From Pecten maximus (taxonomy: Eukaryota), in NCBI RefSeq assembly GCF_902652985.1, contig NC_047016.1:40114001-40178000 (forward strand): a stretch of 64,000 nucleotides of DNA, given 5' to 3'. The notes under the pieces were generated by a model. The model worked only from the letters and a program-made list of their open reading frames with translations. It searched no databases and was not told the DNA's origin. Position numbers and translations under genes: made by a program. This document shows positions 8,612 to 37,707 of this stretch, piece after piece (the first letter of the stretch is position 1; each line of letters starts with the position of its first letter).

Positions 8612-10117
8612 TATGGGGCGCCGTTTTACTATTTATTCCCATTTGGTGATATCACCTATTCAAATAGGTGATATCACCTATTCAAATGAGTGATATCACC
8701 TATTCGTTTCATTAAGTGATATCACCTATTCGAATAGGTGATATCACTTAAGAACTTTTCTAAGTGATATCACCTATTCGAATGAGTGATATCACCTATT
8801 CGTTTCATTAAGTGATATCACCCATTCGAATAGGTGATATCACTCATTCGAATAGGTGATATCACTTATTGAAACGAATAGGTGATATCACCAATTCGAA
8901 TAGGTGATATCACTCATTCGAATAGGTGATATCACTCATTCGAATAGGTGATATCACTTAATGAAACGAATAGGTGATATCACCAATTCATTTTTCAAAT
9001 AAGTGATATCACCTATTCGAATAGGTGATATCACTTAATGAAACGAATAGGTGATATCACCAATTCATTTTTCAAATAAGTGATATCACCTATTCGAATA
9101 GGTGATATCACCCATTCGAATAGGTGATATCACTTAATGAAACGAATAGGTGATATCACTTATTCGAATAGGTGATATCACTCATTCGAATAGGTGATAT
9201 CACCAATTGGAATAGGTGATATCACTTAAAAATATTCTTAAGTGATATCACATATTTGAATAGGTGATATCACCCATTCGAATAGGTGATATCACTTATA
9301 AAATTCTTAAGTGATATCATCTATTCGAATGAGTGATATCACCTATACGAATAGGTGATATCACTTATGAAATTTTATAAGTGATATCACCTATTCGAAT
9401 TGGTGATATCACCTATTCGAATGAGTGATATCACCTATTCAATCAGTGATATCACCTATTCGAATAGGTGATATCACCAATTCATTTTTCAAATAAGTGA
9501 TATCGACTATTCGTTTCATTAAGTGATATCACCTATTCGAATGAGTGATATCACCTATTCGTTTCAATAAGTGATATCACCTATTCGAATGAGTGATATC
9601 ACCTATTCGAATGGGTGATATCACTTAATGAAACGAATAGGTGATATCACTTATTCGAATAGGTGATATCACTCATTCGAATAGGTGATATCACTTTAAA
9701 AAGTTCTTAAGTGATATCACCTATTTGAATAGGTGATATCACTCATTTGAATAGGTGATATCACCAAATGGGAATAAATAGTAAAACGGCGCCCCATAGA
9801 TATCACCTGTTCGAATAGGTGATATCACTTAAGAATATTTTTAAGTGATATCACCTATTCCAATTGGTGATATCAACTATTCGAATGAGTGATATCACCT
9901 ATTCGAATGAGTGATATCGCCTATTCGTTTCATTAAGTGATATCACCTATTCGAATGGGTGATATCATCTATTCGAATGGGTGATATCACTTATTTGAAA
10001 AATGAATTGGTGATATCACCTATTCGAATAGGTTATATCACTGACTGAATAGGTGATATCACTGATTGAATAGGTGATATCACCAAATGGGAATAAATAG
10101 TAAAACGGCGCCCCATA
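8612..10117. mobile_element. MITE-like element filled with palindromic 22-bp GTGATATCAC-CTATTCGAATAG minisatellite
   Basis: Left end TATGGGGCGCCGTTTTACTATTTATTCCCATTTGG at 8612; exact inverse ending at 9798 and again at 10117. Confidence 0.85.
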
Positions 10118-11097
10118 ATGGCGGCAATCATGGATTAGGCCTATGGACTGACCAGAAAAATATCAACATTTGGTAAGGACCATCTCGGGATCATTTCAGG
10201 TAAGGTAGAACTTGAGAAGAAGTTTGAAATAAGTGTTGTTCAGGAAATTGAAAACTATGATTGCGCAAGCATGTTACAAAATGGCAACCGTGTCTGCCAT
10301 GTTTAGATTTTACGAGGCTGAAAAATAGCAACACTTTGTTGGCTACCCTTTCTAATCATCCTCACCGATTTCCAGCTCTATGGCACCAGTGTAAGAAGCG
10401 AAGTATAAAATGCGTTATTCATTTCAAGATGGCTGCCTCGGACCTACCCGAAAAATAACAATACTTAGATCTAGTCAGGGCCATCTCGGGAACATTCCAG
10501 GAAAGTTTCAGCTTTCAGTTCAGTGGAACTCGAGAAGTTTGAAATGTGAAAACGGACGGCGCATGACGACGGACGAAGTACGATTGCTATAAAATGGTCC
10601 CCCAAGAAATAAGAACAAGAGTATAAGAAATATAATGTTAAAGTTTATTTAGATAAAACAGTGTGGCACTAGTGATACTTGCAATTGTTAAAAAATCATA
10701 ACAGCTTTAATTATAGAACAATATAACAGTGTTGCTAAGTGACATTATAGAACCAAATGTGCTGATAATATACAAACACAACATAAGAATATGACAATAA
10801 ACAAACAATATTACGATAAACAAACAACATAACAATATGACAACATTATAAATACAACAATACAAAATGACATAGAAACACGCCGAAACAATGACAATAT
10901 ACAAACAATATATGATATACAAACACATTAATACAACAATATGACAACATGCAAACACAGCATCACACATTTGTGCTGATCAAACACTAATCAATTATAC
11001 GTAGCACTAACGTCTATGGATATCGGAATTACCGAGATTAACCTATCACATTATCAGTCTATCACACGCCCCTCCAGAGAATGCTGTAGTTGGTCTA

Positions 11098-12101
11098 TCA
11101 CACGCCCCTCCAGAGAATGCTGTAGTTGGTCGTAGACATCCTGGCTAGCTCGTCAGTCTCCACGGTCCTTCCCGATGTGGCTGGCATCTCCAAGTCTGGG
11201 TCTCCTCCCAGGGAAGTGAGGACAAGGGCAGATAACTCCTGGACCTGGCGATTCTTCGTGGATCGGTACTGGTCAAACATCCTGCGGACACCCTGGATGA
11301 TGGACTTGCGGGTCAGTAGGTGGAGAACAAGGCTGTGGGCATCGTCAAGTGTGGATAGGAAAAGTTGTCGGTCAAGGCGGGTCAACTGGTCATCTGGAAT
11401 AAAAGATTAAATACATGTATATGTTACTATGTTCAAAGACATTATTCAAGATAAGATCTATCGCACATTGTCCAATAAAAAAAAAAAAATAGAAACTGGA
11501 CATAAGAGTTACGACCGGAAATAAACACACAAGTGTTGATCCCTTTAAAAAAGTCTATATACCAGAAAAAAACCATTTGATTTATATTGAAATGATACAG
11601 TATAGAAATAATCTATTTATTTAGCATTTCTTTGTTGGTATGAAAAACGAACTTTCAACAATTTTAATTTAAACACCTTAAGAATGTGGAATTACGATTC
11701 ATTCTAAATATTTGGTTTGTACATGTATGGTGGAAGAACTTCCTAACTTGTTATTACATTATTACATATTTCATCACAATGTATGGATGGTTTTATTGAG
11801 AAACTAACTGAATTAAAAATAATAAGATAGGATATTTACCCTAACAATACAATTATCCTGAAGTGGGTTTGAGCAATTTAATTAAAGTTATTAAAAAGCG
11901 TTGAAAAAAATGAAGAAAAAATATAAGTTTGATATTGTGCTTTCTAAGAATTAATAATGTTTACATCAAAATAATAGCTTTTTTATCTTAACAATACATA
12001 CCTAAGAAGTTGACCTGCTTGGCAGCGTTGTCGTGGGCCAGTAACAGACTCTGGAGTTTCTGGGCGTAGTACACAACATCAGTAGAGGTCATCTCAGCCA
12101 T
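11098..12101 (-). CDS. Multicopy 131-aa orphan protein, copy 1 (2 exons)
   Basis: Exon 1 12101-12002 (MAEMTSTDVVYYAQKLQSLLLAHDNAAKQVNFL, strong Kozak ACCATGG, donor G|GTATGT), exon 2 11393-11098 (acceptor TTCCAG|, DDQLTRLDRQ...SILWRGV*); 396 nt, phase-1 intron of 608 bp. Confidence 0.88.
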
Positions 12102-12329
12102 GGTACAGGGTAGAGGTCAATTAGTGGGTAGTTCTGGCAGTAGGTATAGAGGCAATGTTGATATCAAATTAGAAAATCGTCTGCTTATATAGACAAGGCT
12201 TGATTTTGATTGGTCTCATCACTTAATCAGTTGCATTGGTCGGAAGAATTAACTCCTCCCATATTTTGATTATCTTAATTACACTTAAACAGTTTTACCG
12301 TTAAATGTGAGTAGATATTGTAACGGTGT

Positions 12330-12873
12330 TGAGATCAAAGGTTTCTTGTCCAGATATGGCTTGGTTTTACCGTACAGGTAATTAGAGGTGGAAATGGAGG
12401 TAAGATCAAAGGTTTCTTGTCCAGGTATGGCTTGGTGTTACTGTACAGGTAATTAGTGGTGGTACTGGAGGTAAGATCAAAGGTTTCTTGTCCAGGTATG
12501 GCTTGGTGTTACTGTACAGGTAATTAGAGGTGGAAATGGAGATAAGATCAAAGGTTTCTTGTCCAGGTATGGCTTGGTTTTACTGTACGGGTAATTAGAG
12601 GTGGTACTGGAGGTAAGATCAAAGGCCTCTTGTCCAGGTATGGCTTGGCGTTACTGTACAGGTAATTAGAGGTGATACTGGAGGTAAGATCAAAGGCCTC
12701 TTGTCCAGGTATGGCTTGGTGTTACTGTACAGGTAATTAGAGGTGATACTGGAGGTAAGATCAAAGGTCTCTTGTCCAGGTATGGCTTGGTGTTACTGTA
12801 CAGGTAATTAGTGGTGGTACTGGAGGTAAGATCAAAGGCCTCTTGTCCTGGTATGGCTTGGTGTTATTGTACA
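12330..12873 (-). promoter_or_regulatory. 71-bp tandem array upstream of copy 1; 8 units, 8 intact TCF/LEF sites
   Basis: AGATCAAAGG at 12332, 12403, 12474, 12545, 12616, 12687, 12758, 12829; unit also has TAATTA and two CAGGTA. Repeat is certain; regulatory role is inferred. Confidence 0.7.
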
Positions 12874-13444
12874 GTTGCAAATTGATTTGACTAAGTTGAC
12901 TATTGACTTAGGTATTCCAAGTGTTATATACAACATACAATAATGTACAGTTCATTACGGCGATGGAAAATCAAATAAATTATACATTTTTCATTACGTC
13001 CTTGTAGATTGTTTCTGCACTGACTAACGACAAAATGTGTCGGAATACAAAAAAAAAATATGGACATATGTTAAATTGAAAAGGTACGTGACAAAGAGAA
13101 GCCAGTTTTACGTTAGCAGGAAGTGACCGACTTAATAATATTGGAAATCAAGTTAACCATGATGTTTGGAACGTAATGTGAAATTAAGTTTTAGATATTT
13201 GCCTAAGTTACACAGTTCCTTTTTATCCTGAACGGTTAATAATTGAACCAGTTTATAAAATGATGGCCGATTCCAGTAATATTTCTTTATATATCTTTTA
13301 CGTAAATCAATATAAAGAGGACAGATAAGCATGAAATGAAATTCATCTTCTATCAAATTTTGAGTTCAGTTAATGCAAAATCCGTGTTCTATTGAAATAT
13401 TTTGGAATCTACCTTCTTCAATATGTAATTGATGAGACGATAAT

Positions 13445-14595
13445 CGAATAGGTGATATCACCAATTCATTTTTCAAATAAGTGATATCACCTATTCGAAT
13501 AGGTGATATCACTTAATGAAACGAATAGGTGATATCACCAATTCATTTTTCAAATAAGTGATATCACCTATTCGAATAGGTGATATCACCCATTCGAATA
13601 GGTGATATCACTTAATGAAACGAATAGGTGATATCACTTATTCGAATAGGTGATATCACTCATTCGAATAGGTGATATCACCAATTGGAATAGGTGATAT
13701 CACTTAAAAATATTCTTAAGTGATATCACATATTTGAATAGGTGATATCACCCATTCGAATAGGTGATATCACTTATAAAATTCTTAAGTGATATCATCT
13801 ATTCGAATGAGTGATATCACCTATACGAATAGGTGATATCACTTATGAAATTTTATAAGTGATATCACCTATTCGAATTGGTGATATCACCTATTCGAAT
13901 GAGTGATATCACCTATTCAATCAGTGATATCACCTATTCGAATAGGTGATATCACCAATTCATTTTTCAAATAAGTGATATCGACTATTCGTTTCATTAA
14001 GTGATATCACCTATTCGAATGAGTGATATCACCTATTCGTTTCAATAAGTGATATCACCTATTCGAATGAGTGATATCACCTATTCGAATGGGTGATATC
14101 ACTTAATGAAACGAATAGGTGATATCACTTATTCGAATAGGTGATATCACTCATTCGAATAGGTGATATCACTTTAAAAAGTTCTTAAGTGATATCACCT
14201 ATTTGAATAGGTGATATCACTCATTTGAATAGGTGATATCACCAAATGGGAATAAATAGTAAAACGGCGCCCCATAGATATCACCTGTTCGAATAGGTGA
14301 TATCACTTAAGAATATTTTTAAGTGATATCACCTATTCCAATTGGTGATATCAACTATTCGAATGAGTGATATCACCTATTCGAATGAGTGATATCGCCT
14401 ATTCGTTTCATTAAGTGATATCACCTATTCGAATGGGTGATATCATCTATTCGAATGGGTGATATCACTTATTTGAAAAATGAATTGGTGATATCACCTA
14501 TTCGAATAGGTTATATCACTGACTGAATAGGTGATATCACTGATTGAATAGGTGATATCACCAAATGGGAATAAATAGTAAAACGGCGCCCCATA
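13445..14595. repeat. Duplicated, left-truncated copy of the GTGATATCAC palindromic array
   Basis: Same variant order as 8967-10117, including both right-hand termini. Confidence 0.9.
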
Positions 14596-15575
14596 ATGGC
14601 GGCAATCATGGATTAGGCCTATGGACTGACCAGAAAAATATCAACATTTGGTAAGGACCATCTCGGGATCATTTCAGGTAAGGTAGAACTTGAGAAGAAG
14701 TTTGAAATAAGTGTTGTTCAGGAAATTGAAAACTATGATTGCGCAAGCATGTTACAAAATGGCAACCGTGTCTGCCATGTTTAGATTTTACGAGGCTGAA
14801 AAATAGCAACACTTTGTTGGCTACCCTTTCTAATCATCCTCACCGATTTCCAGCTCTATGGCACCAGTGTAAGAAGCGAAGTATAAAATGCGTTATTCAT
14901 TTCAAGATGGCTGCCTCGGACCTACCCGAAAAATAACAATACTTAGATCTAGTCAGGGCCATCTCGGGAACATTCCAGGAAAGTTTCAGCTTTCAGTCCA
15001 GTGGAACTCGAGAAGTTTGAAATGTGAAAACGGACGGCGCATGACGACGGACGAAGTACGATTGCTATAAAATGGTCCCCCAAGAAATAAGAACAAGAGT
15101 ATAAGAAATATAATGTTAAAGTTTATTTAGATAAAACAGTGTGGCACTAGTGATACTTGCAATTGTTAAAAAATCATAACAGCTTTAATTATAGAACAAT
15201 ATAACAGTGTTGCTAAGTGACATTATAGAACCAAATGTGCTGATAATATACAAACACAACATAAGAATATGACAATAAACAAACAATATTACGATAAACA
15301 AACAACATAACAATATGACAACATTATAAATACAACAATACAAAATGACATAGAAACACGCCGAAACAATGACAATATACAAACAATATATGATATACAA
15401 ACACATTAATACAACAATATGACAACATGCAAACACAGCATCACACATTTGTGCTGATCAAACACTAATCAATTATACGTAGCACTAACGTCTATGGATA
15501 TCGGAATTACCGAGATTAACCTTTCACATTATCAGTCTATCACACGCCCCTCCAGAGAATGCTGTAGTTGGTCTA

Positions 15576-16581
15576 TCACACACCCCTCCAGAGAATGCTG
15601 TAGTTGGTCGTAGACATCCTGGCTAGCTCGTCAGTCTCCACGGTCCTTCCCGATGTGGCTGGCATCTCCAAGTCTGGGTCTCCTCCCAGGGAAGTGAGGA
15701 CAAGGGCAGATAACTCCTGGACCTGGCGATTCTTCGTGGATCGGTACTGGTCAAACATCCTGCGGACACCCTGGATGATGGACTTGCGGGTCAGTAGGTG
15801 GAGAACAAGGCTGTGGGCATCGTCAAGTGTGGATAGGAAAAGTTGTCGGTCAAGGCGGGTCAACTGGTCATCTGGAATAAAAGATTAAATACATGTATAT
15901 GTTACTATGTTCAAAGACATTATTCAAGATAAGATCTATCGCACATTGTCCAATAAAAAAAAAAAAATAGAAACTGGACATAAGAGTTACGACCGGAAAT
16001 AAACACACAAGTGTTGATCCCTTTAAAAAAGTCTATATACCAGAAAAAAAACCATTTGATTTATATTGAAATGATACAGTATAGAAATAATCTATTTATT
16101 TAGCATTTCTTTGTTGGTATGAAAAACGAACTTTCAACAATTTTAATTTAAACACCTTAAGAATGTGGAATTACGATTCATTCTAAATATTTGGTTTGTA
16201 CATGTATGGTGGAAGAACTTCCTAACTTGTTGGATTATTACATATTTCATCACAATGTATGGATGGTTTTATTGAGAAACTAACTGAATTAAAAATAATA
16301 AGATAGGATATTTACCCTAACAATACAATTATCCTGAAGTGGGTTTGAGCAATTTAATTAAAGTTATTAAAAAGCGTTGAAAAAAAAGGATGAAGAAAAA
16401 ATATAAGTTTGATATTGTGCTTTCTAAGAATTAATAATGTTTACATCAAAATAATAGCTTTTTTATCTTAACAATACATACCTAAGAAGTTGACCTGCTT
16501 GGCAGCGTTGTCATGGGCCAGTAACAGACTCTGGAGTTTCTGGGCGTAGTACACAACATCAGTAGAGGTCATCTCAGCCAT
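15576..16581 (-). CDS. Multicopy 131-aa orphan protein, copy 2 (2 exons)
   Basis: Exons 16581-16482 and 15871-15576; same protein as copy 1; part of the 4.48-kb tandem duplication. Confidence 0.85.
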
Positions 16582-16809
16582 GGTACAGGGTAGAGGTCAA
16601 TTAGTGGGTAGTTCTGGCAGTAGGTACAGAGGCAATGTTGATATCAAATTAGAAAATCGTCTGCTTATATAGACAAGGCTTGATTTTGATTGGTCTCATC
16701 ACTTAATCAGTTGCATTGGTCGCAAGAATTAACTCCTCCCATATTTTGATTATCTTAATTACACTTAAACAGTTTTACCGTTAAATGTGAGTAGATATTG
16801 TAACGGTGT

Positions 16810-17353
16810 TGAGATCAAAGGTTTCTTGTCCAGATATGGCTTGGTTTTACTGTACAGGTAATTAGAGGTGGAAATGGAGGTAAGATCAAAGGTTTCTTGT
16901 CCAGGTATGGCTTGGTGTTACTGTACAGGTAATTAGTGGTGGTACTGGAGGTAAGATCAAAGGTTTCTTGTCCAGGTATGGCTTGGTGTTACTGTACAGG
17001 TAATTAGAGGTGGAAATGGAGGTAAGATCAAAGGTTTCTTGTCCAGGTATGGCTTGGTTTTACTGTACAGGTAATTAGAGGTGGTACTGGAGGTAAGATC
17101 AAAGGCCTCTTGTCCAGGTATGGCTTGGCGTTACTGTACAGGTAATTAGAGGTGATACTGGAGGTAAGATCAAAGGTCTCTTGTCCAGGTATGGCTTGGT
17201 GTTACTGTACAGGTAATTAGAGGTGGTACTGGAGGTAAGATCAAAGGTCTCTTGTCCAGGTATGGCTTGGTGTTACTGTACAGGTAATTAGAGTTGGTAC
17301 TGGAGGTAAGATCAAAGGTCCCTTGTCCAGATATGGCTTGGTGTTACTGTACA
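16810..17353 (-). promoter_or_regulatory. 71-bp tandem array upstream of copy 2; 8 units
   Basis: AGATCAAAGG every 71 bp from 16812 to 17309. Confidence 0.7.
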
Positions 17354-17633
17354 GTTGCAAATTGATTTGACTAAGTTGACTATTGACTTAGGTATTCCAA
17401 GTGTTATATACAACATACAATAATGTACAGTTCATTACGGCGATGGAAAATCAAATAAATTATACATTTTTCATTACGTCCTTGTAGATTGTTTCTGCAC
17501 TGACTAACGACAAAATGTGTCGGAATACAAAAAAAAAAATATGGACATATGTTAAATTGAAAAGGTACGTGACAAAGAGAAGCCAGTTTTACGTTAGCAG
17601 GAAGTGACCGACTTAATAATATTGGAAATCAAG

Positions 17634-19111
17634 TTAACCATGATGTTTGGAACGTAATGTGAAATTAAGTTTTAGATATTTGCCTAAGTTACACAGTTCC
17701 TTTTTATCCTGAACGGTTAATAATTGAACCAGTTTATAAAATGATGGCCGATTCCAGTAATATTTCTTTATATATCTTTTACGTAAATCATTATAAAGAG
17801 GACAGATAAGCATGAAATGAAATTCATCTTCTATCAAATTTTGAGTTCAGTTAATGCAAAATCCGTGTTCTATTGAAATATTTTGGAATCTACCTTCTTC
17901 AATATGTAATTGATGAGACGATAATCGAAATTTAGAAATAAACATCTAGAATAAATTTTGTTAATTAAATAACGTTGAAGAGTAAAAGATTCGATTAAAA
18001 CTTGCACAAAACCACTTTGATGAGCCTTCCATAAATTCACTCCTCGTTTGAATAAACATGTCCATTAAACGCTGCTTAAACAAGTGCAGAAATAATTTAT
18101 TATTATCTACGTTATGGCTCAACCAAACATTACTATAACCAGTAGAAATAAAAGATTTCTAACTTGGCAACGCCAGTTACAGCTTCTGTGATTACATTCA
18201 TTCATATCTACATACACTGACTTAAGTATACAGTTATCAGACTTAATTAATTCAAGCCACTATTTAATAATTCGACACTATGATATGCATAAGTAAAATA
18301 AAAAAAACAGTCAACTTAGATTCAATATTTAGAGACAGATTAATATTAAACAAACATTTTCGTCCAATATCAGCAATAGTAAGCCGAGTTTTATAAAATT
18401 AACTCGTCAAAATGTGACGCCAAGGTAATTAAATCTATCAAAAAATTCAATCGCATTGTTTTCGTTCGAATCTAATCTACCTCCATTCCTGAATACGACA
18501 ATTTTGATTTTCTCGGTATACGTAATTTCAACGACTCTAACATTCTGGAGAAGACCAGTTGAGTATTCAGAAGAAAAATCAGTGTCGTCAGCGTACATTA
18601 AAAAAAAAGATATTATTTCTGAGGAGTAATGCATCACATGACATGATAATTAATTCTTTTTCATAGTCATTGACGTACATTGAGAAGAGGAAGGGAGGTA
18701 ACCCCTCACCTTGCATCAAGCTTTATATAATGCAGAAAAAAAATCTGAAAGTTCAGATTTGTACAAAGCACCTGATTTTAAACTTTCATAAAGTGATTTC
18801 AGAATATCTAAAAGTTTTCCTCTTACACCACTTTGATACAATTTCATAAATAATTTATTTATATACACTATCAAATGTTTTACGATAGTCTACAAAACAG
18901 CAATAGAGCTTACGCTTTTTCCGTGCAGGGCAAATATAGCATCGTTTTTACCGTAACCCGGTTTAAAACCAAACTGGGTGTCAGTTATAATACTGTAATG
19001 GTCGGACAATTTCAGTAGCCTGTTGTTAAGCAAACTTGTAAAAGGTTTTGATAAATAACTTACCAACGTGATGCCTCTATAGTTATTTTCATCCTGCAAC
19101 TGCCACCGCAT
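17634..19111 (-). mobile_element. Decayed LINE (CR1/L2-like) reverse transcriptase
   Basis: Frameshifted fragments NYRGITLVS...QFGFKPG, QGEGLPPFLFSMYVND, LMYADDT, FNYLGVTF, EDEFHFMLICPLY; 3' tip also duplicated at 13153-13448. Confidence 0.9.
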
Positions 19112-21460: not shown

Positions 21461-21579
21461 CACACCATTACAATGTAGAAACACATTCTGTCCATGTCAA
21501 CACTATTAGTAGCACTATGTTTATAGATAGGAAATGTCGATCTCAAACAATCACATTATCAGTCTATCACATTATCAGT

Positions 21580-21723
21580 CTATCACACACCCCTCCAGAG
21601 AATGCTGTAGTTGGTCTATCACACACCCCTCCAGAGAATGCTGTAGTTGGTCTATCACACGCCCCTCCAGAGGATGCTGTAGTTGGTCTATCACACACCC
21701 CTCCAGAGAATGCTGTAGTTGGT
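21580..21723 (-). repeat. 36-bp tandem repeat spanning the stop codon of copy 3 (4 copies)
   Basis: CTATCACACACCCCTCCAGAGAATGCTGTAGTTGGT x4; two copies in genes 1 and 2, one in genes 4 and 5. Confidence 0.95.
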
Positions 21724-22725
21724 AGTAGACATCCTGGCTAGCTCGTCAGTCTCCACGGTCCTTCCCGATGTGGCTGGCATCTCCAAGTCTGGGTCTCCTC
21801 CCAGGGAAGTGAGGACAAGGGCAGATAACTCCTGGACCTGACGGTTCTTGGTGGATCGGTACTGGTCAAACATCCTGCGGACACCCTGGATGATGGACTT
21901 GCGGGTCAGTAGGTGGAGAACAAGGCTGTGGGCATCGTCAAGTGTGGATACGAAAAGTTGTCGGTCAAGGCGGATCAACTGGTCATCTGGAATGAAGAAA
22001 AAATCTGTTACACATTGTACAAAACAAAATACTCTAGCCGGGAACAAAATATAGCAAGCTGAACAGCATGTTGATTTCATATACTTCCGTAAATAAATCA
22101 GACCATATTGAAATTACTTGAATGGCATTATTTTCATATGCTACCATTAACATAAGTTATACTGAAATAATTCAGTAAAACAAAAGCTACCATTGTTATT
22201 TTCACGTAATAGGGATGTAATTTTGAACAAAGTCGTGTCAACAGCTGGTGTTAATTTGTAATTTTACCTTTCTCACTGTTATTGCTCTTTCGTTATTCGT
22301 TATCGATACACGCAACCTTAACCAGTTTTTTTCGTGGTTAAAACTTGCAATTTTATTATTTAACGAAGAACAGGTAACACTGCAAAGATACTGCCATGTT
22401 TGGTTTTTTTAAATTTCTGCAAAAGTAAAATATTCCAAATTATTTACAATTATCCTGAATTGAGTCAATATCATCTCAAAAACGTCAAAAGAAAAAATTG
22501 AGCAATAAAAAAATTCTTTCACGATTAAATGAAATTGCTGGAAGTTTGATATTGTGCTTTGTAAAACTAAAATACTGTTTATAATTTAAAAAAAAAAAAG
22601 AGTTATTTATCCCTACAATACATACCTAAGAAGTTGACCTGCTTGGCAGCGTTGTCGTGGGCCAGTAACAGACTCTGGAGTTTCTTGGCGTAGTACACAA
22701 CATCAGTAGAGGTCATCTCAGCCAT
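21691..22725 (-). CDS. Multicopy 131-aa orphan protein, copy 3 (2 exons)
   Basis: Exons 22725-22626 and 21986-21691; intact frame and splice sites; substitutions Q14K, T38I, L46V; 639-bp intron. Confidence 0.88.
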
Positions 22726-22967: not shown

Positions 22968-23451
22968 AATGGAGGTAAGATCAAAGGTATCATGTCCAGG
23001 TATGGCTTGGTGTTACTGTTCAGGTAATTAGTGGCGGTAATGGAGGTAAGATCAAAGGTCCCTTGTCCATGTATGGCTTGGTGTTACTGTACAGGTAATT
23101 AGTGGTGGTACTGGAGGTAAGATCAAAGGTCCCTTGTCCAGGTATGGCTTGGTGCTACTGTACAGGTAATTAGAGGTGGTACTGGAGGTAAGATCAAAGG
23201 TTTCTTGTCCAGGTATGGCTTGGTGTTACTGTACAGGTAATAAGAGGTGGTACTGGAGGTAAGATCAAAGGTCTCTTGTCCAGGTATGGATTGGTGTTAC
23301 TGTACAGGTAATTAGAGGTGGTACTGGAGGTAAGATCAAAGGTCTCTTGTCCAGGTATGGCTTGGTGTTATTGTCCAGGTAATTAGAGGTGGTACTGGAG
23401 GTAAGATCAAAGGTTTCTTGTCCAGGTATGGCTTGGCGTTACTGTACAGGT
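22968..23451 (-). promoter_or_regulatory. 71-bp tandem array upstream of copy 3; 7 units
   Basis: AGATCAAAGG every 71 bp from 22978 to 23404. Confidence 0.7.
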
Positions 23452-23996: not shown

Positions 23997-25495
23997 TATA
24001 TTGTAGATATATCATATATTGTAGATATATCATATATTGTAGATATATCATATATTGTAGATATATCATATATTGTAGATATATTATATATCGTAGATAT
24101 ACTATATATTGTAGATATACTATATATTGTAGATATATCATCATATAGCGTCATATGACCTCAACCTTATTGAGACGGAGACTAAACGGGACTTATTAAA
24201 ACTTGAAATTTGGTCCAATGAATGGCTTATGTCCTTTAATCCTAATAAAACCGAGGCCCTCGTAATATCAACTAGACAACTTCCTTTTGTTCCGTCCTTT
24301 ACATTCGACAATACCCCGATTAAAATAACAAACCACCATAAACACCCAGGAGTCATTCTTTCTGATGATTGTAAGTGGAACGTACATGTAGAATATATAG
24401 TCAATAAAGTAACTAAATATATAGCCACCCTCCGTAAATTAAAACTTATCTTAAACAGGAACACATTAGAAAAAATGTACCTTACCTATATACGACCATT
24501 ACTTGAATATGCATGTGAAGTATGGGACAACTGCGGTACAACAAACTCATTGCTATTAGAAAAGATAAATCTAGAGGCCGCAAGAATAGTCACAGGGCTG
24601 TCCATATTCACAAAAAAGAGTCCTTATATCTGGAAACCGGTTGGTTACCACTTTCGAAGAGAAGAGATGCTCGGAAACTTTCCTTATTCTATAGTAAATA
24701 ATCTGGCACCTACTTTTCTTATCGACCTACTACCAATGTATATTGGCAACATAGCTCCTTATAATTTACGAAATGCAGATTTATTTAGGGAACAACACTT
24801 TCGTCTACAACTATCAAAAAATCCTTCTTTCCTTCTACTTCAAAACTTTGGAATGACTTACATAACACTATCAGAAACTCGCCTACTTTAAGTTCCTTCA
24901 AATCTAATCTAAAAAAATCTATGACAGTAAACAATATATATGACAAGCATTTTATCAGTTATGGTCCTCGAAAACTAAATATTCTACACAACAGAATAAG
25001 AAATCGAGCAAGTGCACTAAGCTATGATCTTTTTAGAGCCAATCTCGTTGATTCACCTGCTTGCCAATGTGGACATCCCTGTGAAGATTCCCATCATTTT
25101 GTCCTTAACTGTCCCCTGTACAACAACTTAAGAGGAACTCTTATTGCTGATTTAACCTGGTACGGTCCTGTTAATGTAAATATACTTTGCAATGGTGACA
25201 CGAATATCTCCTCAACTGACAATATAAAAATCGCCAAAGTTGTGCAAAACTTCTTGAGTAGGTCGGGAAGATTCGACTAATCATCACTTCCTATCCCCCA
25301 CCCCCTTCTTTTCATACTATTTTCCTATAATAAAAAAACTTAATCCAAAATGCTCCATTTATCCATATAATATAAAAATGTTTTTTCTTCTAATCGATCA
25401 AGTATATTTGAATTCATTCCAAACATTTATATGTCGTGATCTTTCCCGATGCAGTCATTTAACTTTATATGTACCTATCTCCTCCTCCCTCCTGC

Positions 25496-26942: not shown

Positions 26943-27847
26943 TGAAATAGGTTAAATTTCTTAAGTGCTAGAATGGTGTGTTAAAGGGGATCTGCGATCG
27001 TGAAAATATATATCTCTAAGTTTTATTTTCTTCGGCTTAACAACAGATCTGAGATGGAAAATGTAGTTATAAAAACAGTATTACAACATATACATGTTTA
27101 TTTACTGTTTAAAAACAAAAAAATAAACAACAAAAACAACACACACACACAAAAACGGTATTATTCTAGATGAAGCTTGAACTATCTATGTACTGGGTTT
27201 TTTCAGCTCACTTTTCATGTTTTCCCTGGGAAACAATGCAAATATCTTTATCCAGCTCTATGGTGGTGGTTTGATTCCTGAAATGATAATTAACATATCA
27301 AGCAAATGTGAAAGGACATGAGCAAAATTTTATGTTTTGTGCAAATTAATGTATTCTAAATATAACATGTTTCTATTTGTAATTTTACAACATTAAACAT
27401 ACACTTAAATATTGTCATGTGAATATTAGAATTGTCACAAACTTCACTCTATCAACCATGCGTACCTACACATTCGTACAAATTTACATTCATTACTTTT
27501 ACTTCAAAGTCTTTGTTTTTTACGAAAACATTTACTTTTTAAGTTTGAATTTAAGTTAAAATTTTAAGTTTAATTCCGTTGATGTTATTTACGTCAGTCT
27601 ATAAGACATCGATCATAGCCCAATATTTCTTGTCAGTATCGAGTTGGAAGTATTTTTAAGGCATCATAGCTATCGCCTGGATGATATAAATGTACACAAA
27701 AGTGGTAAGTGTTAAATAGTATGTGTATTGTAACTTCACTTCTACTTTTCAGATTATTTTATTTTGTACGATCTGGATTTCTTTTTTTTTAATTTTCGGT
27801 CAAAATAAATCACAATAACAACAATCACCATCTCAAGTTGGAGACCT

Positions 27848-28402
27848 TACCTGTATAGTAACACCAAGCCATACCTGGACAAGAAACCTTTGATCTTACG
27901 TCCATTACCACCTCTAATTACCTGTACAGTAACACCAAGCCATACCTGGACAGGAGACCTTTGATCTTACCTCCAGTACCACCATTAATTACCTGTACAG
28001 TAACACCAAGCCATACCTAGACAAGAGACCTTTTATCTTACCTCCAGTACCACCACTAATTACCTGTACAGTAACACCAAGCCATACCTAGACAAGAAAC
28101 CTTTGATCTTACCTCCATTACCACCACTAATTACCTGTACAGTAACACCAAGCCATACCTGGACAAGAAACCTTTGATCTTACCTCCAGTACCACCTCTA
28201 ATTACCTGTACAGTAACACCAAGCCATACCTGGACAAGAAACCTTTGATCTTACCTCCATTACCACCACTAATTACCTGTACAGTAACACCAAGCCATAC
28301 CTGGACAAGAGACCTTTGATCTTACCTCCAGTACCACATCTAATTACCTGTACAGTAACACCAAGACAAATACCTGGACAAGAGACCTTTGATCTTACCT
28401 CC
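27848..28402 (+). promoter_or_regulatory. 71-bp tandem array upstream of copy 4; 8 units, 7 intact TCF/LEF sites
   Basis: CCTTTGATCT from 27887 to 28386, one mutated (28029). Confidence 0.7.
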
Positions 28403-28484: not shown

Positions 28485-28545
28485 CGACCAATGAAATTGA
28501 ATAACTGAAGTGACCAATCAAAATGAAACAGTGTCCATAAAACCA
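28485..28545 (+). promoter_or_regulatory. Core promoter: two CCAAT boxes 26 bp apart plus TATA-like box (equivalents in all five copies)
   Basis: CCAAT at 28488 and 28514 then CATAAAA; copy 5 CCAAT at 36635 and 36661 then TGTATAA; copies 1/2 TATATAA and copy 3 TATAAAA on minus strand at the same offset; spacer between boxes diverges. Confidence 0.75.
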
Positions 28546-28625: not shown

Positions 28626-29489
28626 ATGGCTGAGATGACCTCTACTGATGTTGTGTACTACGCCCAGAAGCTCCAGAGTCTGTTACTGGCCCACGACAAC
28701 GCTGCCAAACAGGTCAACTTCTTAGGTATGTATTGTAGGGATAATTAACATACATTTAGATTTTTTCTATACCTGTTTAATATTTCAAAATCTCAAAGTT
28801 TATTTTTTCATTTTCCCCATTGTTTGTATCTTTGCACTGTTTTCTGTATTTTAGCAGGAAAGAAAACTTTATAATAAATAAAATAAAATAAATAAATTAT
28901 TATTAACCAATATGTGAAAATAACACGATGGATTGTTATTTTTTTCCTGTATTATTTCAGTATAAATATCGTTTATATACTGGTAGTATATGTATATGAA
29001 AAAAATACAAACACATTAATTAATTCTTATCTTCCTGTCCTTTTACATATCTTTCAGCAATATGAAACATAGCTTATCTTCGTACAATGTTGCTATATAT
29101 TTAACTTCGTACAATATGTACTATATTTCATCTTTGTATAATATGTTTTATATTTGTAGAATGTGTAATATATTTTATTTTTTTTTCTTCCAGATGACCA
29201 GTTGACTCGCCTTGACCGACAACTTTTCCTATCCACACTTGACGATGCCCACAGCCCTGTCCTCCACCTACTGACCCGCAAGTCCATCATCCAGGGTGTC
29301 CGCAGGATGTTTGACCAGTACCGATCCACCAAGAATCGTCAGGTCCAGGAGTTATCTGCCCTTGTCCTCACTTCCCTGGGAGGAGACCCAGACTTGGAGA
29401 TGCCAGCCACATCGGGAAGGACCGTGGAGACTGACGAGCTAGCCAGGATGTCTACCACCAACTACAGCATTCTCTGGAGGGGTGTGTGA
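28626..29489 (+). CDS. Multicopy 131-aa orphan protein, copy 4 (2 exons)
   Basis: Exons 28626-28725 and 29194-29489; intact; L55P; 468-bp intron; AATAAA at 29945. Confidence 0.88.
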
Positions 29490-30258
29490 TAGACTGATAA
29501 TGTGATTGGTTAATATCGATAATTCCTGTGTCCATAGACGTTAGTGCTATTAAGTGTTTAATAATTGGTTTCTATACACTGTCATATTGTAAGTTAGCGT
29601 ATTGTTACATTGCATTGTTGTGTTTGTGTATTGTCATTGCATTGTTGTGTTTGTGTATTGTCATATTGCAATTTTGTGTTTGTGTATTGTCATTGTATTG
29701 TGTTTGTACCTTGTTACATTGTATTATTGTGTTTGTATATTGTCATTGTATTATTGTATTTGTACCTTGTCATATTGTATTGTTGTCTGTATATAACATT
29801 GAATTGTTAAGTTCGTTAACTGTTGTATTGTATTTTGTCATATTGTATTATTGTGGTTGTTTATTTTGTATTGTATGAGTAATATGATTTTATAATATTG
29901 AATAATTCTTTCATGTGAATCGCTAGTGCTACATTACTTTATTAAATAAATATTAACATAACAATATCATATCAATTTGTTGTTTATCTATTTATTCTTA
30001 TTTTCTTCCTGGAACGCTAGTCAGTAGCGAGTGACCTATTTCTTATCCTATATACAGAGAGTTCTTCATTCCCTCCCACGGGCGAATGCATGTATAGACA
30101 AAGAGATTTTAACCGTTGAAATCAGATATAGGTATAGTTGAATAAGATATATTTCTATTTACTCGAAAAATACAGATATCTATATATGCAAATAATATAT
30201 CTGTTAATTTCATCTAGTGTTTCTGTATATATGTGGGGAAAAGCAAATAAGTCTTAGA

Positions 30259-31026
30259 CAGTGGACTCTGTCTAAACCGGACACCTTTGGGACCACAAAA
30301 TAAAGCCGGTTTGTAGAGAGTTTCGGATTGTAGAGATTCTACTTGATATCGTCGTTGAATGCAAAAAAAAAAAGAACAGGTGTCGCTGTGCATAATTCAT
30401 GCATATACAAACTTCGAATTGAATAACATAATTTAATTCAACACTGGCAATATCACACTATATGTCCGTTACATCGGTTGAAAACAATCACTGATTGTTG
30501 TTTGTTTTAAGAGGCCTTCCACCGAATCCGAACAATCAACCGATTTGACACTTTCTATAAGTGCAGATTCCCAATCTGAGGAATTAGCCTCAATTTCTAA
30601 TTGGTCCTTAATGTTGGCGGCTGTCGTGAGATCCATGTTTGTTGATAATAGAAACGGAGTAATACAAAAGGTATGTCGTCACCATCATCTACGACTTCCT
30701 CATCCGGGTACGTTCGTGTAGTGAGGTCCGCGAAGGAGAAGCCAGCCAGCATGAAACATTTCTGAATTACGATACATTTACAAACATGTTACATTACTGG
30801 TATAAATTGACAAAAAAATGCATTCTTTATTGTACCTAACAACTGTTTAGGTGATTATCCAGTCGTAGCCACCTGTGGACAATGACGTTTAACGGTCAAT
30901 TAATAATATACTGTGCGGCAATTACAACTGTATAAACACTCGTCGGGAGCCCCTGAAGTCAAATTATTTGGCCGGTTTTGGCAAATATCCAGATTGGACA
31001 GAGTCCGGTTTGGACAGAGTGCACTG
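30259..31026. mobile_element. Tc1/mariner-type MITE
   Basis: TIRs CAGTGGACTCTGTCTAAACCGGAC / GTCCGGTTTGGACAGAGTGCACTG, TA on right. Confidence 0.8.
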
Positions 31027-31509
31027 TAAATAGGAATTTGTGTATGTATGTGTGAGTATGTAGAGGAGTATTTGTATTTTATGTACTTTGCATTGACGAA
31101 AAACTTGAATAAAAAGATCATTATAAAAAAATTCTACAGTTACGGTCGAAGATAACGGACAGCAGTCAGGTAATCTTGAGCATCCATATAAATTAATGTT
31201 GAAATAATCATGCACACACCCTATTTAATATATTATTGTATGCTGCTGGTTTTCTGTTGTATTTGCAGCATTATCATCGGTCACAGTTACTTAATCAACA
31301 GGAAAGGGTTACAACATTGCAAGAAAATTTGATGGGCGTTGCACGGAAATTATGTGAAACGGTACTTATGATGGGCGGATGTCGCTACATCTCAGGAAAT
31401 GAGTACTATAGTTTCCATGACTGATGATTGGAAACAATTATTTGATTGAAGTTTCCTTGATTTATGATAGGAAACAAACACTGCATTGAACTTATTGAGA
31501 TCTATATTA

Positions 31510-32071
31510 TGTCTGTACCCAGGATCCTCTTGATTATATTGAATTGTTACCAAACTTGTTGACTCGACATCAGAGGATGTCTGTATACCCAGGATCCCCT
31601 TGATTATATTGAATTGTTGTCAAACATGTTGACTCGACATCAGATGATGTCTGTTCCCAGAATCCTCTTGATTATATTGAATTGTTGTCAAACTTGTTGA
31701 CTCGACATCAGAGGATGTCTGTACCCAGGATCCTCTTGATTATATTGAATTGTTGTCAAACTTGTTGACCCGACATCAGAGGATGTCTGTACCCAGGATC
31801 CCCTTGATTATATTGAATTGTTGTCAAACTTGTTGACTCGACATCAGAGGATGTCTGTTCCCAGAATCCTCTTGATTATATTGAATTGTTGTCAAACTTG
31901 TTGACTCGACATCAGAGGATGTCTGTTCCCAGAATCCTCTTGATTATATTGAATTGTTGTCAAACTTGTTGACCCGACATCAGAGGATGTCTGTTCCCAG
32001 AATCCTCTTGATTATATTGAATTGTTGTCAAACTTGTTGACTCGACATCAGAGGATGTCTGTACCCAGGAT
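31510..32071. repeat. 68-bp tandem repeat, about 8 copies
   Basis: CCAGGATCCTCTTGATTATATTGAATTGTTGTCAAACTTGTTGACTCGACATCAGAGGATGTCTGTAC. Confidence 0.95.
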
Positions 32072-33608
32072 TCTCGTGATGCCTTTATATTGTATTTTAT
32101 GGTACGCCAATTGCGGTGTACATTTGCACTATTGTTTATTAAACTGTGGCCAAGATCATCCAATTATACATTTGTTGAATTGTTTCTTTTAATGTTGACC
32201 ATGTCATTGGGCTATGATAAAGATATCTATATATCTATTTCTAAATTAAAGTTGTCTTACATACAGTTATTCTGATTTGATTAATTAAAGATATATCTGA
32301 ATTGGAAATGTACATATCTGAAATGGCTTGGTATAAACGTGAGTTCGAGGGTAATGAAATTTCACCAATAAACAAATCTGTATTGAAAACAATGCCGATG
32401 TACAAGACAATTGTGGTAACAGTTTATTTAAGTGACAACATAACAAAATATGTGTGTTAAGGGAAGGAACCGCGATATATAAGAATTGCTAAATTCGTGG
32501 TCCTTAAAATGTTTGAAAGACACAGGGACCCCCTCTCGTGCCAAATAGTGTCGTTATGGCAGACTGATATTTCTGTTATTGTATTCATGTTAATGGGACT
32601 TCCTGTTCCGGTTATAACCGAGTCTAGGACACTGATTGTTTTAATCTCGAAGAGTCTAACTTCTTTATCTCGAAGTTAGCTGGAGCCATGAAAAATTTCG
32701 AGATATGCCGAGTATATTCGAAGTAACCTAGTATAGTTTATTTTAAATTGTTTACTGTTTGGACTGAATTTTTACTTCGATGTGAGCATGGTTTTCGAGT
32801 TATCACATTTCGATATAAAGAGGTCTGACTCATTTTTAAACGAACATTAATGTTCGGTTATTGCCATCAAGAACTGGACTGAGAAATATGACCATATTTG
32901 GTATCCACATTCACCAATACGCCATCTACTGTCTGTTTCAATGAAATATGGCTGCCCCCATTGCCTTACGCTTCACATGATTTACCTGCAAAAACATCTT
33001 CGTTTTATATACAATGTAGTAGTTTTACCGAAAATGTTGAATTATATTCAGTAGATGTTTTCAAGATGCATACGATTTGAGAAATGCATAACGCTAGCGA
33101 AATGTTAAGACTAAATGAACCTGAACTTTGCGAATAACTCCAGGTCAATATATTTTTGTAAACAACTATTGCGCAGGCGCATTCGTCTCCGGATGTTTAG
33201 AAAGTTTTGCTCTTCCGTGTTCATTCCAAAACGGCTGACATTATAGCATAGGTCTGCAAATATGTCCGCGATTTACTTAAATATGTATATTCTAGAATGT
33301 TACATCATTATCAACTTGGTGTGTATTTCTATAATTTAGAGAAAGAAATATATCAATAACGGCATACGAGACGATACATTGTATCATACTATAGGTTACT
33401 GTACGTGTTAACGGTGTTTGCGAGAAAGAACTGTATAGACTTACAATTAGGTGGCATTTGTGGTCAGGGTGACTGGTCATAGCGTTAACGTTGTCATCGA
33501 TTTCCATATACCAATTTCCTTTGACGAAAATGACCAATAAATCAAATGCAAATGATAATACATCAAATCAGAGACCTATATACTAACCAGAGACCTATGT
33601 CTCTGATG

Positions 33609-34158
33609 AAATCTACTGTGTTATACATCAAATCTACTGTGTTATACATCAAATCTACTGTGTTATACATCAAATCTCCTGTATTATACATCAAACATAC
33701 TGTATTATACATCAAATCTCCTGAATTATACATCAAATCTACTGTATTATACATCAAATCTCCTGTATTATACATCAAATCTACTGTATTATACATCAAA
33801 TCTCCTGAATTATACATCAAATCTACTGTATTATACATCAAATCTACTGTATTATACATCAAATCTCCTGAATTATACATCAAACCTACTGCATTATACA
33901 TCAATTCTACTGTATTATACATCAAATCTACTGTATTATACATCAAATCTACTGTATTATACATCAAATATCCTGTATTATACATCAAATCTACTGTATT
34001 ATACATCAAATCTCCTGTATTATACATCAAATCTACTGTATTATACATCAAATATACTGTATTATACATCAAATCTACTGTATTATACATCAAATATACT
34101 GTATTATACATCAAATCTACTGTATTATACATCAAACCTACTGTATTATACATCAAAT
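33609..34158. repeat. 21-bp minisatellite, about 26 copies
   Basis: (AAATCTACTGTATTATACATC)n. Confidence 0.95.
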
Positions 34159-34189
34159 CGTTGTTCGTTAAAAAACATAAAGTGCATTT

Positions 34190-34660
34190 TGTTTATTTTT
34201 GTTGTGTAATAGGATCGAGTCATTGTGGTTTGTACGGTAACTGTCACGCAGCTGACGAAGCATACGCTATCACGCCGTATACCGGGTTCGAATCCTGTTT
34301 GTCGGCGCTCGACAGGAATGTTTTTCGACTTTCTTGTCTGCTTTTTATTGTGTTGCAAGTTGTTCACCAATTGTACCCCGACTACAAAATTCGTTTATGT
34401 GTAGCAAAAATAATGTCAGTTCGAGGACGGAACCCTGAGGTACTCCTGAGGTTACTTTCGTCCAAACGGAAATGTCTCAAGTTCACTGACACTGGTTGTA
34501 AAACAGGACTCATCATATAACACTGAAAGTTTATATGTTTATTTTGATCATATTTCTCAGAAATTCATTTCTAGTTCTATGGCTAAAGCTGACGGGGGAC
34601 ATATCTGACCTGATTGATCCGTATCCGTTCTATTTCCGGTAATATGAAAAAGTCTTCCTT
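34190..34660. mobile_element. Old LINE RT remnant (minus) next to tRNA-like SINE head; homologous block at 39345-39880
   Basis: Minus strand reads SVWTKVTSGVPQGSVLELTLFLLHINE (RT motif); CCGGGTTCGAATC B box on plus; both features recur at 39345-39880. Confidence 0.65.
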
Positions 34661-35926
34661 AACTTATATGAATATGGTCATTTCACCTCCATTACTGGCT
34701 ATTTTATGTGGTAATAAAAACAAGTTATCTTAACGTTTGTACAATGCATTACTGACTGACCATATTGCGTGTAGTTTAAACTGTGTTTTATTTGTCAATT
34801 TCCATTTAACAATATATATACAACATATAAATTTCTACTTAAAGGGATCAAAAATAAGTGTCAATACACTTATATCTAGACACCTAGAATTATAGGTTGA
34901 CGTTACCTAACAGCATATACATGATAAAACACATCATCGTATCCTAATGGCAATAAAGTCTAATATGAAAACATCAGTTGGAATTTGATCAAATCATTAA
35001 ATACATTGTGGTTGATAGAAAGGGAGAAAAACGTGAAAGTGGGATTTTCTACTGCCATCTGGTTGTAGATATATATTGATTGTGGTATTAATCTCAAATA
35101 ATAGACGTACAAAATATGTACATGCTACGTTAGAAATGTTTGATTGTACAAGAAAATTTTCACAGCAAGGAATATCCTCGTGTTATCGTCGATGGAAAGA
35201 GAATCATCTCCCGACAAACGTATTGTTATGTTATAATTTATGGTATGGTTACAATATACTTATGTCGTAGATAGGAAAAATTATAACACGTTAAAAGAAT
35301 TGTGAAGTATTACTGGTTCTCATACCCATAAATAGATCGATTATGTCGAAAATATTTTAAAATGAAAACGGTGTCAGTTACGTATGGCTGGCACGAATAA
35401 TAATAGCCAACTTCAATAGTGTTATCCTAGAAAGTCTTAAAAACCTGTATTCGCAACTATATATAATTGTGTTTTTCATTCTGGCCAAAGTGTAAGACAT
35501 AGAATGTTTAAAAACTTATCTGTTAATTTTACCTTAAGGTCAAAAATATACCTTTCTAAAGTATCGTACAGGTGAACGCCGTCATTCCGTTGAAACAAGA
35601 AGATGGGAAAAGTTCTTAGGGAAGAACATGCTTGTGTATTGTGTGATTAATGATCTATTGGGGATGAATACCACTATGTTTTTGAATATGATTTTCTTTT
35701 TCGTATTGAAATATGTACATGTACGAATATTCCGTAATACTATATTCAGTATCAAAATACTATAAAATACTCTGAATTATTTTGTACTTATTTGAAAATA
35801 TTGAAAAACTATTCGCTTTTCTCCATTTTATTATGTTAATATTTCAGTTTCTGTGTTAACTATGCCGGTGTAAGCTTTTATTTACATTGATTTTTTGTCT
35901 AAGTGAGTATGAGATAATCTTTTGTT

Positions 35927-36549
35927 CTGTACAGTAAAAACAAGTCATACCTGGACAAGGGACCTTTGATCTTACCTCCAGTACCACCACTAATTACCTG
36001 TACAGTAAAAACAAGTCATACCTGGACAAGGGACCTTTGATCTTATCGCCAGCACCATCACTAATTACCTGTACAGTAACACCAAGCCATACCTGGACAA
36101 GATACCTTAGATCTGGTCTCCAGTACCACCACTAATTACCTGTACAGTAACACCAAGCCATACCTGGAAAAGAGCCCTTTGATCTGGTCTCCAGTACCAC
36201 CACTAATTACCTGTACAGTAACACCAAGCCATACCTGGACAAGAAACCTTTGATCTTACCTCCAGTACCACCACTAACTACCTGTACAGTAACACCAAGC
36301 CATACCTGGACAAAAGCCCTTGAATCTTACCTCCAGTAACACCACTAATTACCTGTACAGTAACACCAAGCCATACCTGGACAAGGAACCTTTGATCTTA
36401 CCTCCAGTACCACCACTAATTACCTGTACATTAACACCAAGCCATAACTGGACAAGATACCTTTGATCTTACCTCCAGTACCACCTCTAATTACCTGTAC
36501 AGTAACACCAAGCCAAATACCTGGACAAGAGACCTTTGATCTTACCTCC
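35927..36549 (+). promoter_or_regulatory. 71-bp tandem array upstream of copy 5; 9 units, 7 intact TCF/LEF sites
   Basis: CCTTTGATCT from 35963 to 36533, two mutated (36105, 36318), both in distal/middle units. Confidence 0.7.
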
Positions 36550-36772
36550 GTTACGATATCTACTCACATTTAACGGTAAAACTGTTTAAATGTAATTAAG
36601 ATAATTACAATTTGGGAGGAGTTCATTCTTGCGACCAATCAAATTGATCAATTGATTTGTCCAATCAAAATCAAGCCTTGTCTGTATAACCGGACGATTT
36701 TCTAATTTGATATCATTATTGCCTCTGTACCTACTGCCAGAACTACCCACTACTTGACCTCTACTCTGTACC

Positions 36773-37707
36773 ATGGCTGAGATGACCTCTACTGATGTTG
36801 TGTACTACGCCCAGAAACTCCAGAGTCTGTTACTGGCCCACGACAACGCTGCCAAGCAGGTCAACTTCTTAGGTATGTATTGTAGGGATAATTAACATAC
36901 ATTTAGATTTTTTTTCTATGTCTGTTCAATATTTTTTCCTCAAATATCAAAATCTATTTTTTTCCCAATTATTAGTTCTTAATCTTCCAATTTAGCGGTA
37001 TTAATATCTTTGCAGTGTTTTCTGTTCTTCGTGAAGTTTCCTTGGAATTGGTTGAGGTAACGTTCATTGATAAAGAATAATCAATTTTAGCAGGAAAGAA
37101 AAAATTATAATAAATCAAATAAAATAAAAAAAATTATCATTAACATGTGAAATATGTGATAATAGCACGATGGATTATTATTATTTTACTGTATTATTTC
37201 AGTATTAATATCGTTTGTTACTGGTAGCATATGAAAAAAATATAAATCAACACATTAATTAATTATCTTCCTTTCCTTCTCTTACCTATCTTTCAACAAT
37301 ACAATGTTGCTATATATTTTTTTTATGACAATGTGTACTATATTTTATCTTTGTATAATATATTTTATTTTTGTAGAATGTGTAATATATTTTTTATTTC
37401 TTTTATTCCAGATGACCAGTTGACCCGCCTTGACCGACAACTTTTCCTATCCACACTTGACGATGCCCACAGCCTTGTTCTCCACCTACTGACCCGCAAG
37501 TCCATCATCCAGGGTGTTCGCAGGATGTTTGACCAGTACCGATCCACCAAGAACCGTCAGGTCCAGGAGTTATCTGCCCTTGTCCTCACTTCCCTGGGAG
37601 GAGACCCAGACTTGGAGATGCCAGCCACATCGGGAAGGACCGTGGAGACTGACGAGCTAGCCAGGATGTCTACGACCAACTACAGCATTCTCTGGAGGGG
37701 CGTGTGA
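36773..37707 (+). CDS. Multicopy 131-aa orphan protein, copy 5 (2 exons)
   Basis: Exons 36773-36872 and 37412-37707; intact; 539-bp intron; AATAAA at 38782. Confidence 0.88.

Follow-up and report, generated by a model that had tools for sequence, protein, structure and literature searches.

A five-copy scallop gene under purifying selection, its upstream arrays of TCF-type sites and its relatives with histone-type 3' ends

We analysed 64,000 nucleotides of the Pecten maximus genome (NCBI RefSeq assembly GCF_902652985.1, contig NC_047016.1, positions 40,114,001 to 40,178,000 of the forward strand), referred to below as the window and numbered from its first letter. This 64-kb window contains one two-exon gene in five copies (c1 to c5 where pairs are compared), copies 1-3 on the minus strand and copies 4-5 on the plus strand. 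Every copy has a coding sequence (CDS) of 396 nt for 131 amino acids, with a phase-1 GT..AG intron after nucleotide 100 and no stop or indel, and the five copies encode a real, spliced gene under purifying selection. Upstream of each copy lies a tandem array of seven to nine 71-nt units, which ends about 230 nt before the start and is followed by two CCAAT boxes and a TATA-like box. Searched at the DNA level, the P. maximus genome yielded no copies beyond the five in the window. The genes are placed as follows.

Copy 1: 11098..12101, minus strand; exons 12002-12101 and 11098-11393.
Copy 2: 15576..16581, minus strand; exons 16482-16581 and 15576-15871; about 99.5% identical to copy 1, intron included.
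Copy 3: 21691..22725, minus strand; exons 22626-22725 and 21691-21986; residues K14, I38 and V46.
Copy 4, coding exon 1: 28626..28725, plus strand (gene 28626-29489).
Copy 4, intron of 468 nt: 28726..29193, plus strand; spliced out in transcript contigs of two of four runs.
Copy 4, coding exon 2: 29194..29489, plus strand; holds P55.
Copy 4, first AATAAA 3' of the stop: 29945..29950, plus strand; putative poly(A) signal.
Copy 5, coding exon 1: 36773..36872, plus strand (gene 36773-37707).
Copy 5, intron of 539 nt: 36873..37411, plus strand; spliced out in contigs of three of four runs.
Copy 5, coding exon 2: 37412..37707, plus strand.
Copy 5, first AATAAA 3' of the stop: 38782..38787, plus strand.

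A preliminary description of the locus, made from its letters alone, had compared copies 4 and 5 by eye and proposed purifying selection on a functional protein. Its approximate count proved exact: nine codons differ, eight synonymously (15, 28, 38, 56, 69, 81, 121 and 130) and one by the replacement L55P. Given that roughly one site in four is silent, the probability of at least eight silent changes among nine is 1e-4 to 7e-4 (kappa 1-8). The five copies together have 14 variable codons, 10 that vary silently only and four at which a residue is replaced (P = 3e-4 to 3e-3), and omega (dN/dS over all copies) is 0.13-0.19 by codon and 0.11 by mutation count (12:4), which is well away from 1 and bears out the proposed selection. 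These counts are small and come from a within-genome comparison of five copies; the signal is also qualified by the choice of pair, since few pairs favour it as strongly as c4/c5: c3/c5 has 3 silent:3 replacement differences and c3/c4 5:4. The intact frames of all five copies and the GC-rich exons noted in the description were likewise recovered (GC 0.54-0.55 in the CDS vs 0.22-0.29 in introns, with 0.37 upstream); GC at third codon positions (GC3) is 0.67-0.69, and that of the genome is near 0.34.

Transcript contigs contain the predicted splice junction of both plus-strand copies, in the numbers of runs given above, and display copy-specific untranslated regions (UTRs). Such contigs are a poor measure of expression level: depth exceeded 1000 in run X2, and none matched in run X21 of the same study. 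Runs X18 and X21 gave no contig matching copy 4, which is not proof of absence. Spliced contigs of run X3 extend upstream through the copy 5 promoter into its 71-nt array (36416-36870), a hint of an upstream start or of read-through. Residue P55 of copy 4 may be a private allele of the assembly or an error, since codon 55 reads as Leu in each of the two runs that span it, despite the presence of copy-4 UTR pieces. Intact frames, low omega, splicing and conserved relatives together uphold the claim of a real functional protein.

The label 'orphan', by contrast with that claim, has to be abandoned: a profile search retrieved 131 cluster representatives, and a second round 371 proteins. Organisms named among the 20 representatives looked up were bivalves, gastropods and one nemertean, and an annelid was included among the 120 proteins listed from the second round. 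The suspected likeness to uncharacterised mollusc proteins was found in P. maximus itself, where exon 2 is 98-100% identical to the uncharacterised LOC117322063 and LOC117322064, and in other scallops, with full-length orthologues in Ylistrum, Argopecten and Mizuhopecten (79-88% identical). Three distant intron-type paralogues lie elsewhere in the genome, 27-39% identical and with the intron position conserved. No Pfam family fitted the window protein or its family, PDB sequence and ESM Atlas searches gave no significant named relative, and no paper naming the family identifiers was found in the literature searched, which excluded subscription journals. One annotated isoform (P0004) joins a copy-3-type exon 1 (K14) to a copy-1/2-type exon 2, which reflects either faulty mapping or splicing from one copy into its neighbour. 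Near-identical multi-copy proteins of intron-type-like sequence occur in Haliotis (P0149-P0159) and Saccostrea (P0143-P0145), and amplification therefore recurs in other molluscs. A Mya protein model (P0060) has the family domain fused to ankyrin repeats and is possibly a mis-joined gene model.

AlphaFold, run with 99 sequences, predicted helices at residues 6-49 and 53-94, a linker and a third helix at 115-128 (mean pLDDT 89; about 86 for helix 115-128). The helical N-terminal hairpin of the preliminary description thus stands, while its low-structure C-terminus is not upheld throughout, the predicted helix at 115-128 carrying a motif that is conserved. By profile score the 131 representatives split into 98 window-like sequences (intron-type-like) and 33 of a more basic, strongly conserved type. 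The profiles of the two types align over 79 ungapped columns (HHalign 97.6%, E = 3.8e-12) and the basic type is predicted to fold into the same hairpin; on this profile evidence, the window protein is homologous to the basic, intronless subfamily. Coiled-coil periodicity is able to inflate profile matches, which counts against this homology, and the window type lacks the invariant basic RY..FRY..R core (Arg/Tyr) of its relatives. Foldseek/VIA matches to ESCRT-III/Vipp1 and the LSD1 tower were of the generic hairpin kind, and no named relative was significant; in the ESCRT-III/PspA comparison the best Foldseek E was 0.067, Z was 10-11.7 and tied with many unrelated hairpins, and Pfam gave no match. 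A likeness to HR1 repeats and to ICAT found no support in Pfam. Complex prediction of the window protein with scallop beta-catenin ARM repeats (the beta-catenin gene was found through Arm matches, a pattern search having given 0) scored 0.02 when computed without alignments and is uninformative either way.

The C-terminal motif includes an arginine third from the end (R-3), found in 63 of the 98 intron-type-like sequences and in 2 of the 33 others; in the window protein it is R129 of 131. It is nearly invariant among 58 aligned sequences chosen as intron-type, and its position is constant relative to the chain end, irrespective of linker length. Statements taken here from cited papers refer to the parts of them that were covered. 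According to PMC7458402, R-3 is a degron recognised by Cul4-TRPC4AP, and by analogy the scallop protein may be removed through an R-3 C-degron, a suggestion we make tentatively and at somewhat under an even chance. Several points detract from it: 35 of the 98 sequences lack Arg at -3 (many of them look like partial gene calls), the tail of the window protein departs from the family motif and has no Cys at -7, and R-3 is possibly structural because helix 115-128 is predicted to be ordered. The motif could instead be a helix that folds back, or an end that binds a partner, making the protein a stable three-helix module or oligomer resembling ESCRT-III/PspA or the LSD1 tower. The pLDDT of helix 3, the conserved hydrophobic and Cys positions ahead of the Arg and the long hairpins among the best, non-significant, fold matches make this a respectable minority view; yet those matches are ties among generic hairpins, and an Arg fixed to the true chain end at any linker length behaves like a terminus-recognition signal.

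The basic relatives differ from the window genes in their 3' ends. When the P. maximus genome was searched with a conserved-type protein from oyster, at least 150 of 194 candidates were scored as matches, most of them intronless and arranged in tandem as 1.55-kb units; H3 had at least 13 full-length matches, and both counts are lower bounds. The tandem units lie at C15:12.91-12.93M, C10:43.45M and C12:1.27M and on many unplaced contigs (L011-L030); within each unit, an intronless family gene is terminated by a histone stem-loop, and the opposite strand carries a tRNA-like element. A histone-type stem-loop was detected 3' of the stop on the sense strand at nine of the 12 intronless places read in the genome. 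The Rfam Histone3 model gave eight matches over its cut-off among such places, with stems changed on both sides, and a purine-rich downstream element follows, with sequence and spacing as in P. maximus histone genes. The same end was found in other animals: of 75 family loci from metagenome contigs, 70 had enough DNA, and a stem-loop was present in 36 of them with a strict finder (control 0/452) and in 43 with a relaxed one (control 1/264). Histone3 matched 11 of 20 other loci given to Rfam at E <0.05, two of them over the cut-off. No U7 snRNA gene was found in the P. maximus genome with the Rfam U7 model. Three intronless members gave no stem-loop match (C2:40.80M, C12:3.76M and C4:26.65M; L051, L050 and L049), and members of this kind stand between the two branches as a third state.

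A stem-loop followed by a downstream element marks replication-dependent histone messages, whereas histone variants have introns and are polyadenylated (PMC10730174, PMC13525598). The window copies are not of the histone message type, each having one spliced intron, an AATAAA and no stem-loop; neither the 64-kb window (no match with Rfam) nor the loci of the three intron-type paralogues contain such a 3' end. The window genes are the 'variant' form of the family. No report of non-histone stem-loop genes was found in the literature searched, whose coverage excluded subscription journals and bioRxiv supplements.

The intron-type branch is set apart further by its upstream sequence, which in the window is arranged as follows.

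Copy 1 array: 12332..12874, minus strand; 71-nt units with eight TCF-type sites.
Copy 2 array: 16812..17354, minus strand; 71-nt units with eight TCF-type sites.
Copy 3 array: 22970..23451, minus strand; 71-nt units with seven TCF-type sites.
Copy 4 array: 27847..28402, plus strand; 71-nt units with seven CCTTTGATC sites (TCF/LEF HMG-type).
Copy 5 array: 35927..36549, plus strand; 71-nt units with seven TCF-type sites.
Copy 4 promoter: 28488..28541, plus strand; CCAAT at 28488 and 28514, TATA-like box at 28536 (putative function).
Copy 5 promoter: 36635..36690, plus strand; CCAAT at 36635 and 36661, TATA-like box at 36685.

The window has 37 CCTTTGATC sites, 0.67 being expected by chance, and every one falls inside these five arrays; the 71-nt array was found nowhere apart from these genes. 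The site agrees with SCTTTGWWSWW, the HMG consensus for TCF proteins (PMC4154663), and is better conserved than the rest of the unit (4/315 vs 106/2170 positions changed). The 9-mer site also occurs 160-235 nt before the start in all three distant intron-type paralogues, in none of nine intronless relatives and not in the one H3 gene read, against a background of one in 300,158 nt. Judged from these sequence features, transcription is likely to be TCF-driven and to come as a strong burst owing to the number of copies and of sites. Some observations speak against this. The array sites are copies of one unit and not independent, which leaves the three paralogues as independent support; HMG-only arrays are often unresponsive in vivo (PMC4154663); and the Helper site GCCGCCR, needed in many but not all modules, is absent from the unit consensus. 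Part of the unit, moreover, recurs in an unrelated satellite with neither TCF site nor family gene. TACCTG, a Zelda/ZEB-type word, was discarded because it belongs to an unrelated satellite with no family gene nearby.

The same facts can be read as a real, dosage-amplified coiled-coil gene under other control (tissue, stage or stress), the array being an ordinary satellite with a chance TCF-like word. Minisatellites are abundant in the window, part of the unit recurs elsewhere, the Helper site is lacking, and two CCAAT boxes with a TATA-like box could be enough for a promoter. We regard this as unlikely, though not negligibly so, as it must account for a 9-mer at similar distance in three of three paralogues that have no upstream array, with a background of one in 300 kb, and for arrays that are 89-94% identical between copies whose introns fail to align.

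Likeness of the copies is not explained by purifying selection alone because silent sites are far more alike than introns, and selection at the protein level cannot hold silent sites. Four-fold sites diverge by 1.5-9.1% across all ten copy pairs, whereas introns diverge by 27-35%, with 20-31 gaps, in eight of the ten, the exceptions being c1/c2 (0.4%) and c4/c5 (12%). Divergence outside c1/c2 is 11-18% in promoters and 6-11% in the 71-nt arrays. For c1/c5, 3/67 four-fold sites and 154/455 intron sites differ (P = 5e-8). Residues K14 and I38 of copy 3 are common to two Ylistrum paralogues, which points to an old duplication; the remainder of copy 3 is Pecten-like. Since silent sites differ by 1.5-9% and most introns by 27-35%, the copies are probably old duplicates whose exons have been kept alike by gene conversion. 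Evidence on the other side is that four-fold divergence is not significantly lower than promoter divergence (P = 0.09), that c4/c5 shows no gap between exon and intron divergence (P = 0.40) and that the four-gamete test is failed by a single site, which is a CpG.

Conversion would be unneeded if the copies were recent duplicates, with AT-rich bivalve introns turning over fast by indels and codon selection holding the silent sites. Promoter divergence of just 11-18%, the high GC3 relative to the genome and the small number of informative sites leave some room for this, but it remains the less probable account: silent sites are closest in the pairs whose introns have diverged most (c1/c5 4.5%, c3/c4 3.1%), c4/c5 has alignable introns yet 7.6% silent divergence, and copy 3 shares its two residues with the Ylistrum paralogues. 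The low omega holds with or without gene conversion, and silent distance is no clock for these copies.

Copies 1 and 2 lie within a 4.48-kb duplication (8600-17800, about 99.5% identity), which is either very recent or an uncollapsed piece of the assembly. The last 36 nt of the CDS, stop included, are tandemly repeated in the 3' UTR of copies 1 and 2 (twice) and copy 3 (four times), and the repeat is visible in transcript contigs:

3' UTR repeats of the CDS end: 11057-11131 (copy 1), 15535-15609 (copy 2) and 21578-21723 (copy 3).

The cluster is flanked on the left by a palmitoyl-protein-thioesterase-like (PPT-like) gene (633-8148, minus strand) and on the right by a rhodopsin-family GPCR (41622-50944, plus strand). 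Decayed pieces of a non-LTR retrotransposon are found at 24229-25280, between copies 3 and 4 where the cluster switches strand, and at 60795-61070. It is very improbable, and largely refuted, that the gene travels with a mobile or selfish repeat or was created by faulty assembly: the occurrence of relatives as 1.55-kb tandem units on numerous contigs, the near identity of copies 1 and 2 and the retrotransposon remnant would suit such an origin, but transposase, reverse transcriptase, Gag and viral families had no match among the 83 + 21 family proteins, viral folds gave none either, the intron position is conserved in paralogues, other scallops have orthologues, and transcripts carry copy-specific UTRs, so that at most c1/c2 is an uncollapsed duplicate.

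Taken whole, our reading is that the window holds the intron-bearing, likely Wnt-switched, likely short-lived and likely partner-binding branch of an unnamed spiralian family, a composite to which we give nearly an even chance. The branch is viewed in this way because it has an intron and an upstream TCF-site array instead of a histone-type end. Wnt/beta-catenin-TCF would switch the cluster on via the 71-nt arrays, and the five copies would yield a burst of small hairpin protein, which its R-3 C-terminal end would make short-lived. This protein would bind a partner protein and would probably modulate whatever the basic, histone-timed relatives act on. Its action as a modulator or decoy, suggested by a hairpin that is kept while the invariant basic core is missing, is conceivable but rather doubtful. 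More speculative still, and in our estimate improbable, is a spiralian non-histone family on the histone plan, with a repeated stem-loop form timed to replication or the oocyte and an intron-bearing polyadenylated variant; the window variant would be Wnt-wired by a TOPFLASH-like array and degron-destroyed, a signal-induced antagonist linking beta-catenin to an undescribed cell-cycle or chromatin process.

The selection signal is ordinary; the novelty attaches to the family as a whole and to its pair of regulatory modes. Gene models for identical proteins, LOC117322063 and LOC117322064 with their pectinid orthologues, already exist in automatic annotation, which carries no function, family or regulation. 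The screen for spiralian-specific genes that includes lophotrochin and trochin (PMC7441323) likewise concerns conserved, lineage-restricted proteins; the family was not seen in the part of its gene table covered, and five family motifs or identifiers had no matches in four supplementary files, in which cells over 400 letters were cut. Concerted evolution limited to coding parts has been proposed for KRTAP1 (bioRxiv 10.1101/282418), whose coding parts are also similar within a genome while flanks have diverged; the homogenised region of the scallop gene is split by an intron, and the DNA of a single genome was compared. The window protein resembles R-3 C-degron substrates of Cul4-TRPC4AP (PMC7458402) in its Arg fixed third from the end, but those were defined in human cells and the scallop motif includes a predicted helix.

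The split between replication-dependent histones and variants (H3.1 vs H3.3; PMC10730174, PMC13525598) is repeated in the family, with tandem intronless stem-loop genes and dispersed genes with intron and AATAAA. The difference is that the family proteins are not histones, that the window genes are of the intron/poly(A) kind and that SLBP/U7 processing of its stem-loop members is putative. The stem-loop/SLBP/U7 route is described for histone messages, and here its signals are found in a non-histone family that is conserved and outnumbers H3 in genomic matches. The sister branch has instead an intron and a dense array of TCF sites. With seven to eight perfect HMG sites ahead of a basal promoter, this array resembles Wnt-responsive modules and the TOPFLASH reporter (PMC4154663), from which it differs in being natural, in lacking consensus Helper sites and in being known from its sequence; natural modules are described, in the part of that paper covered, as having no dense perfect-site clusters of the TOPFLASH kind. 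If the array responds, molluscs would have in this cluster an endogenous reporter of Wnt activity that is ready to use, and a protein found across the lineage would become accessible to study.

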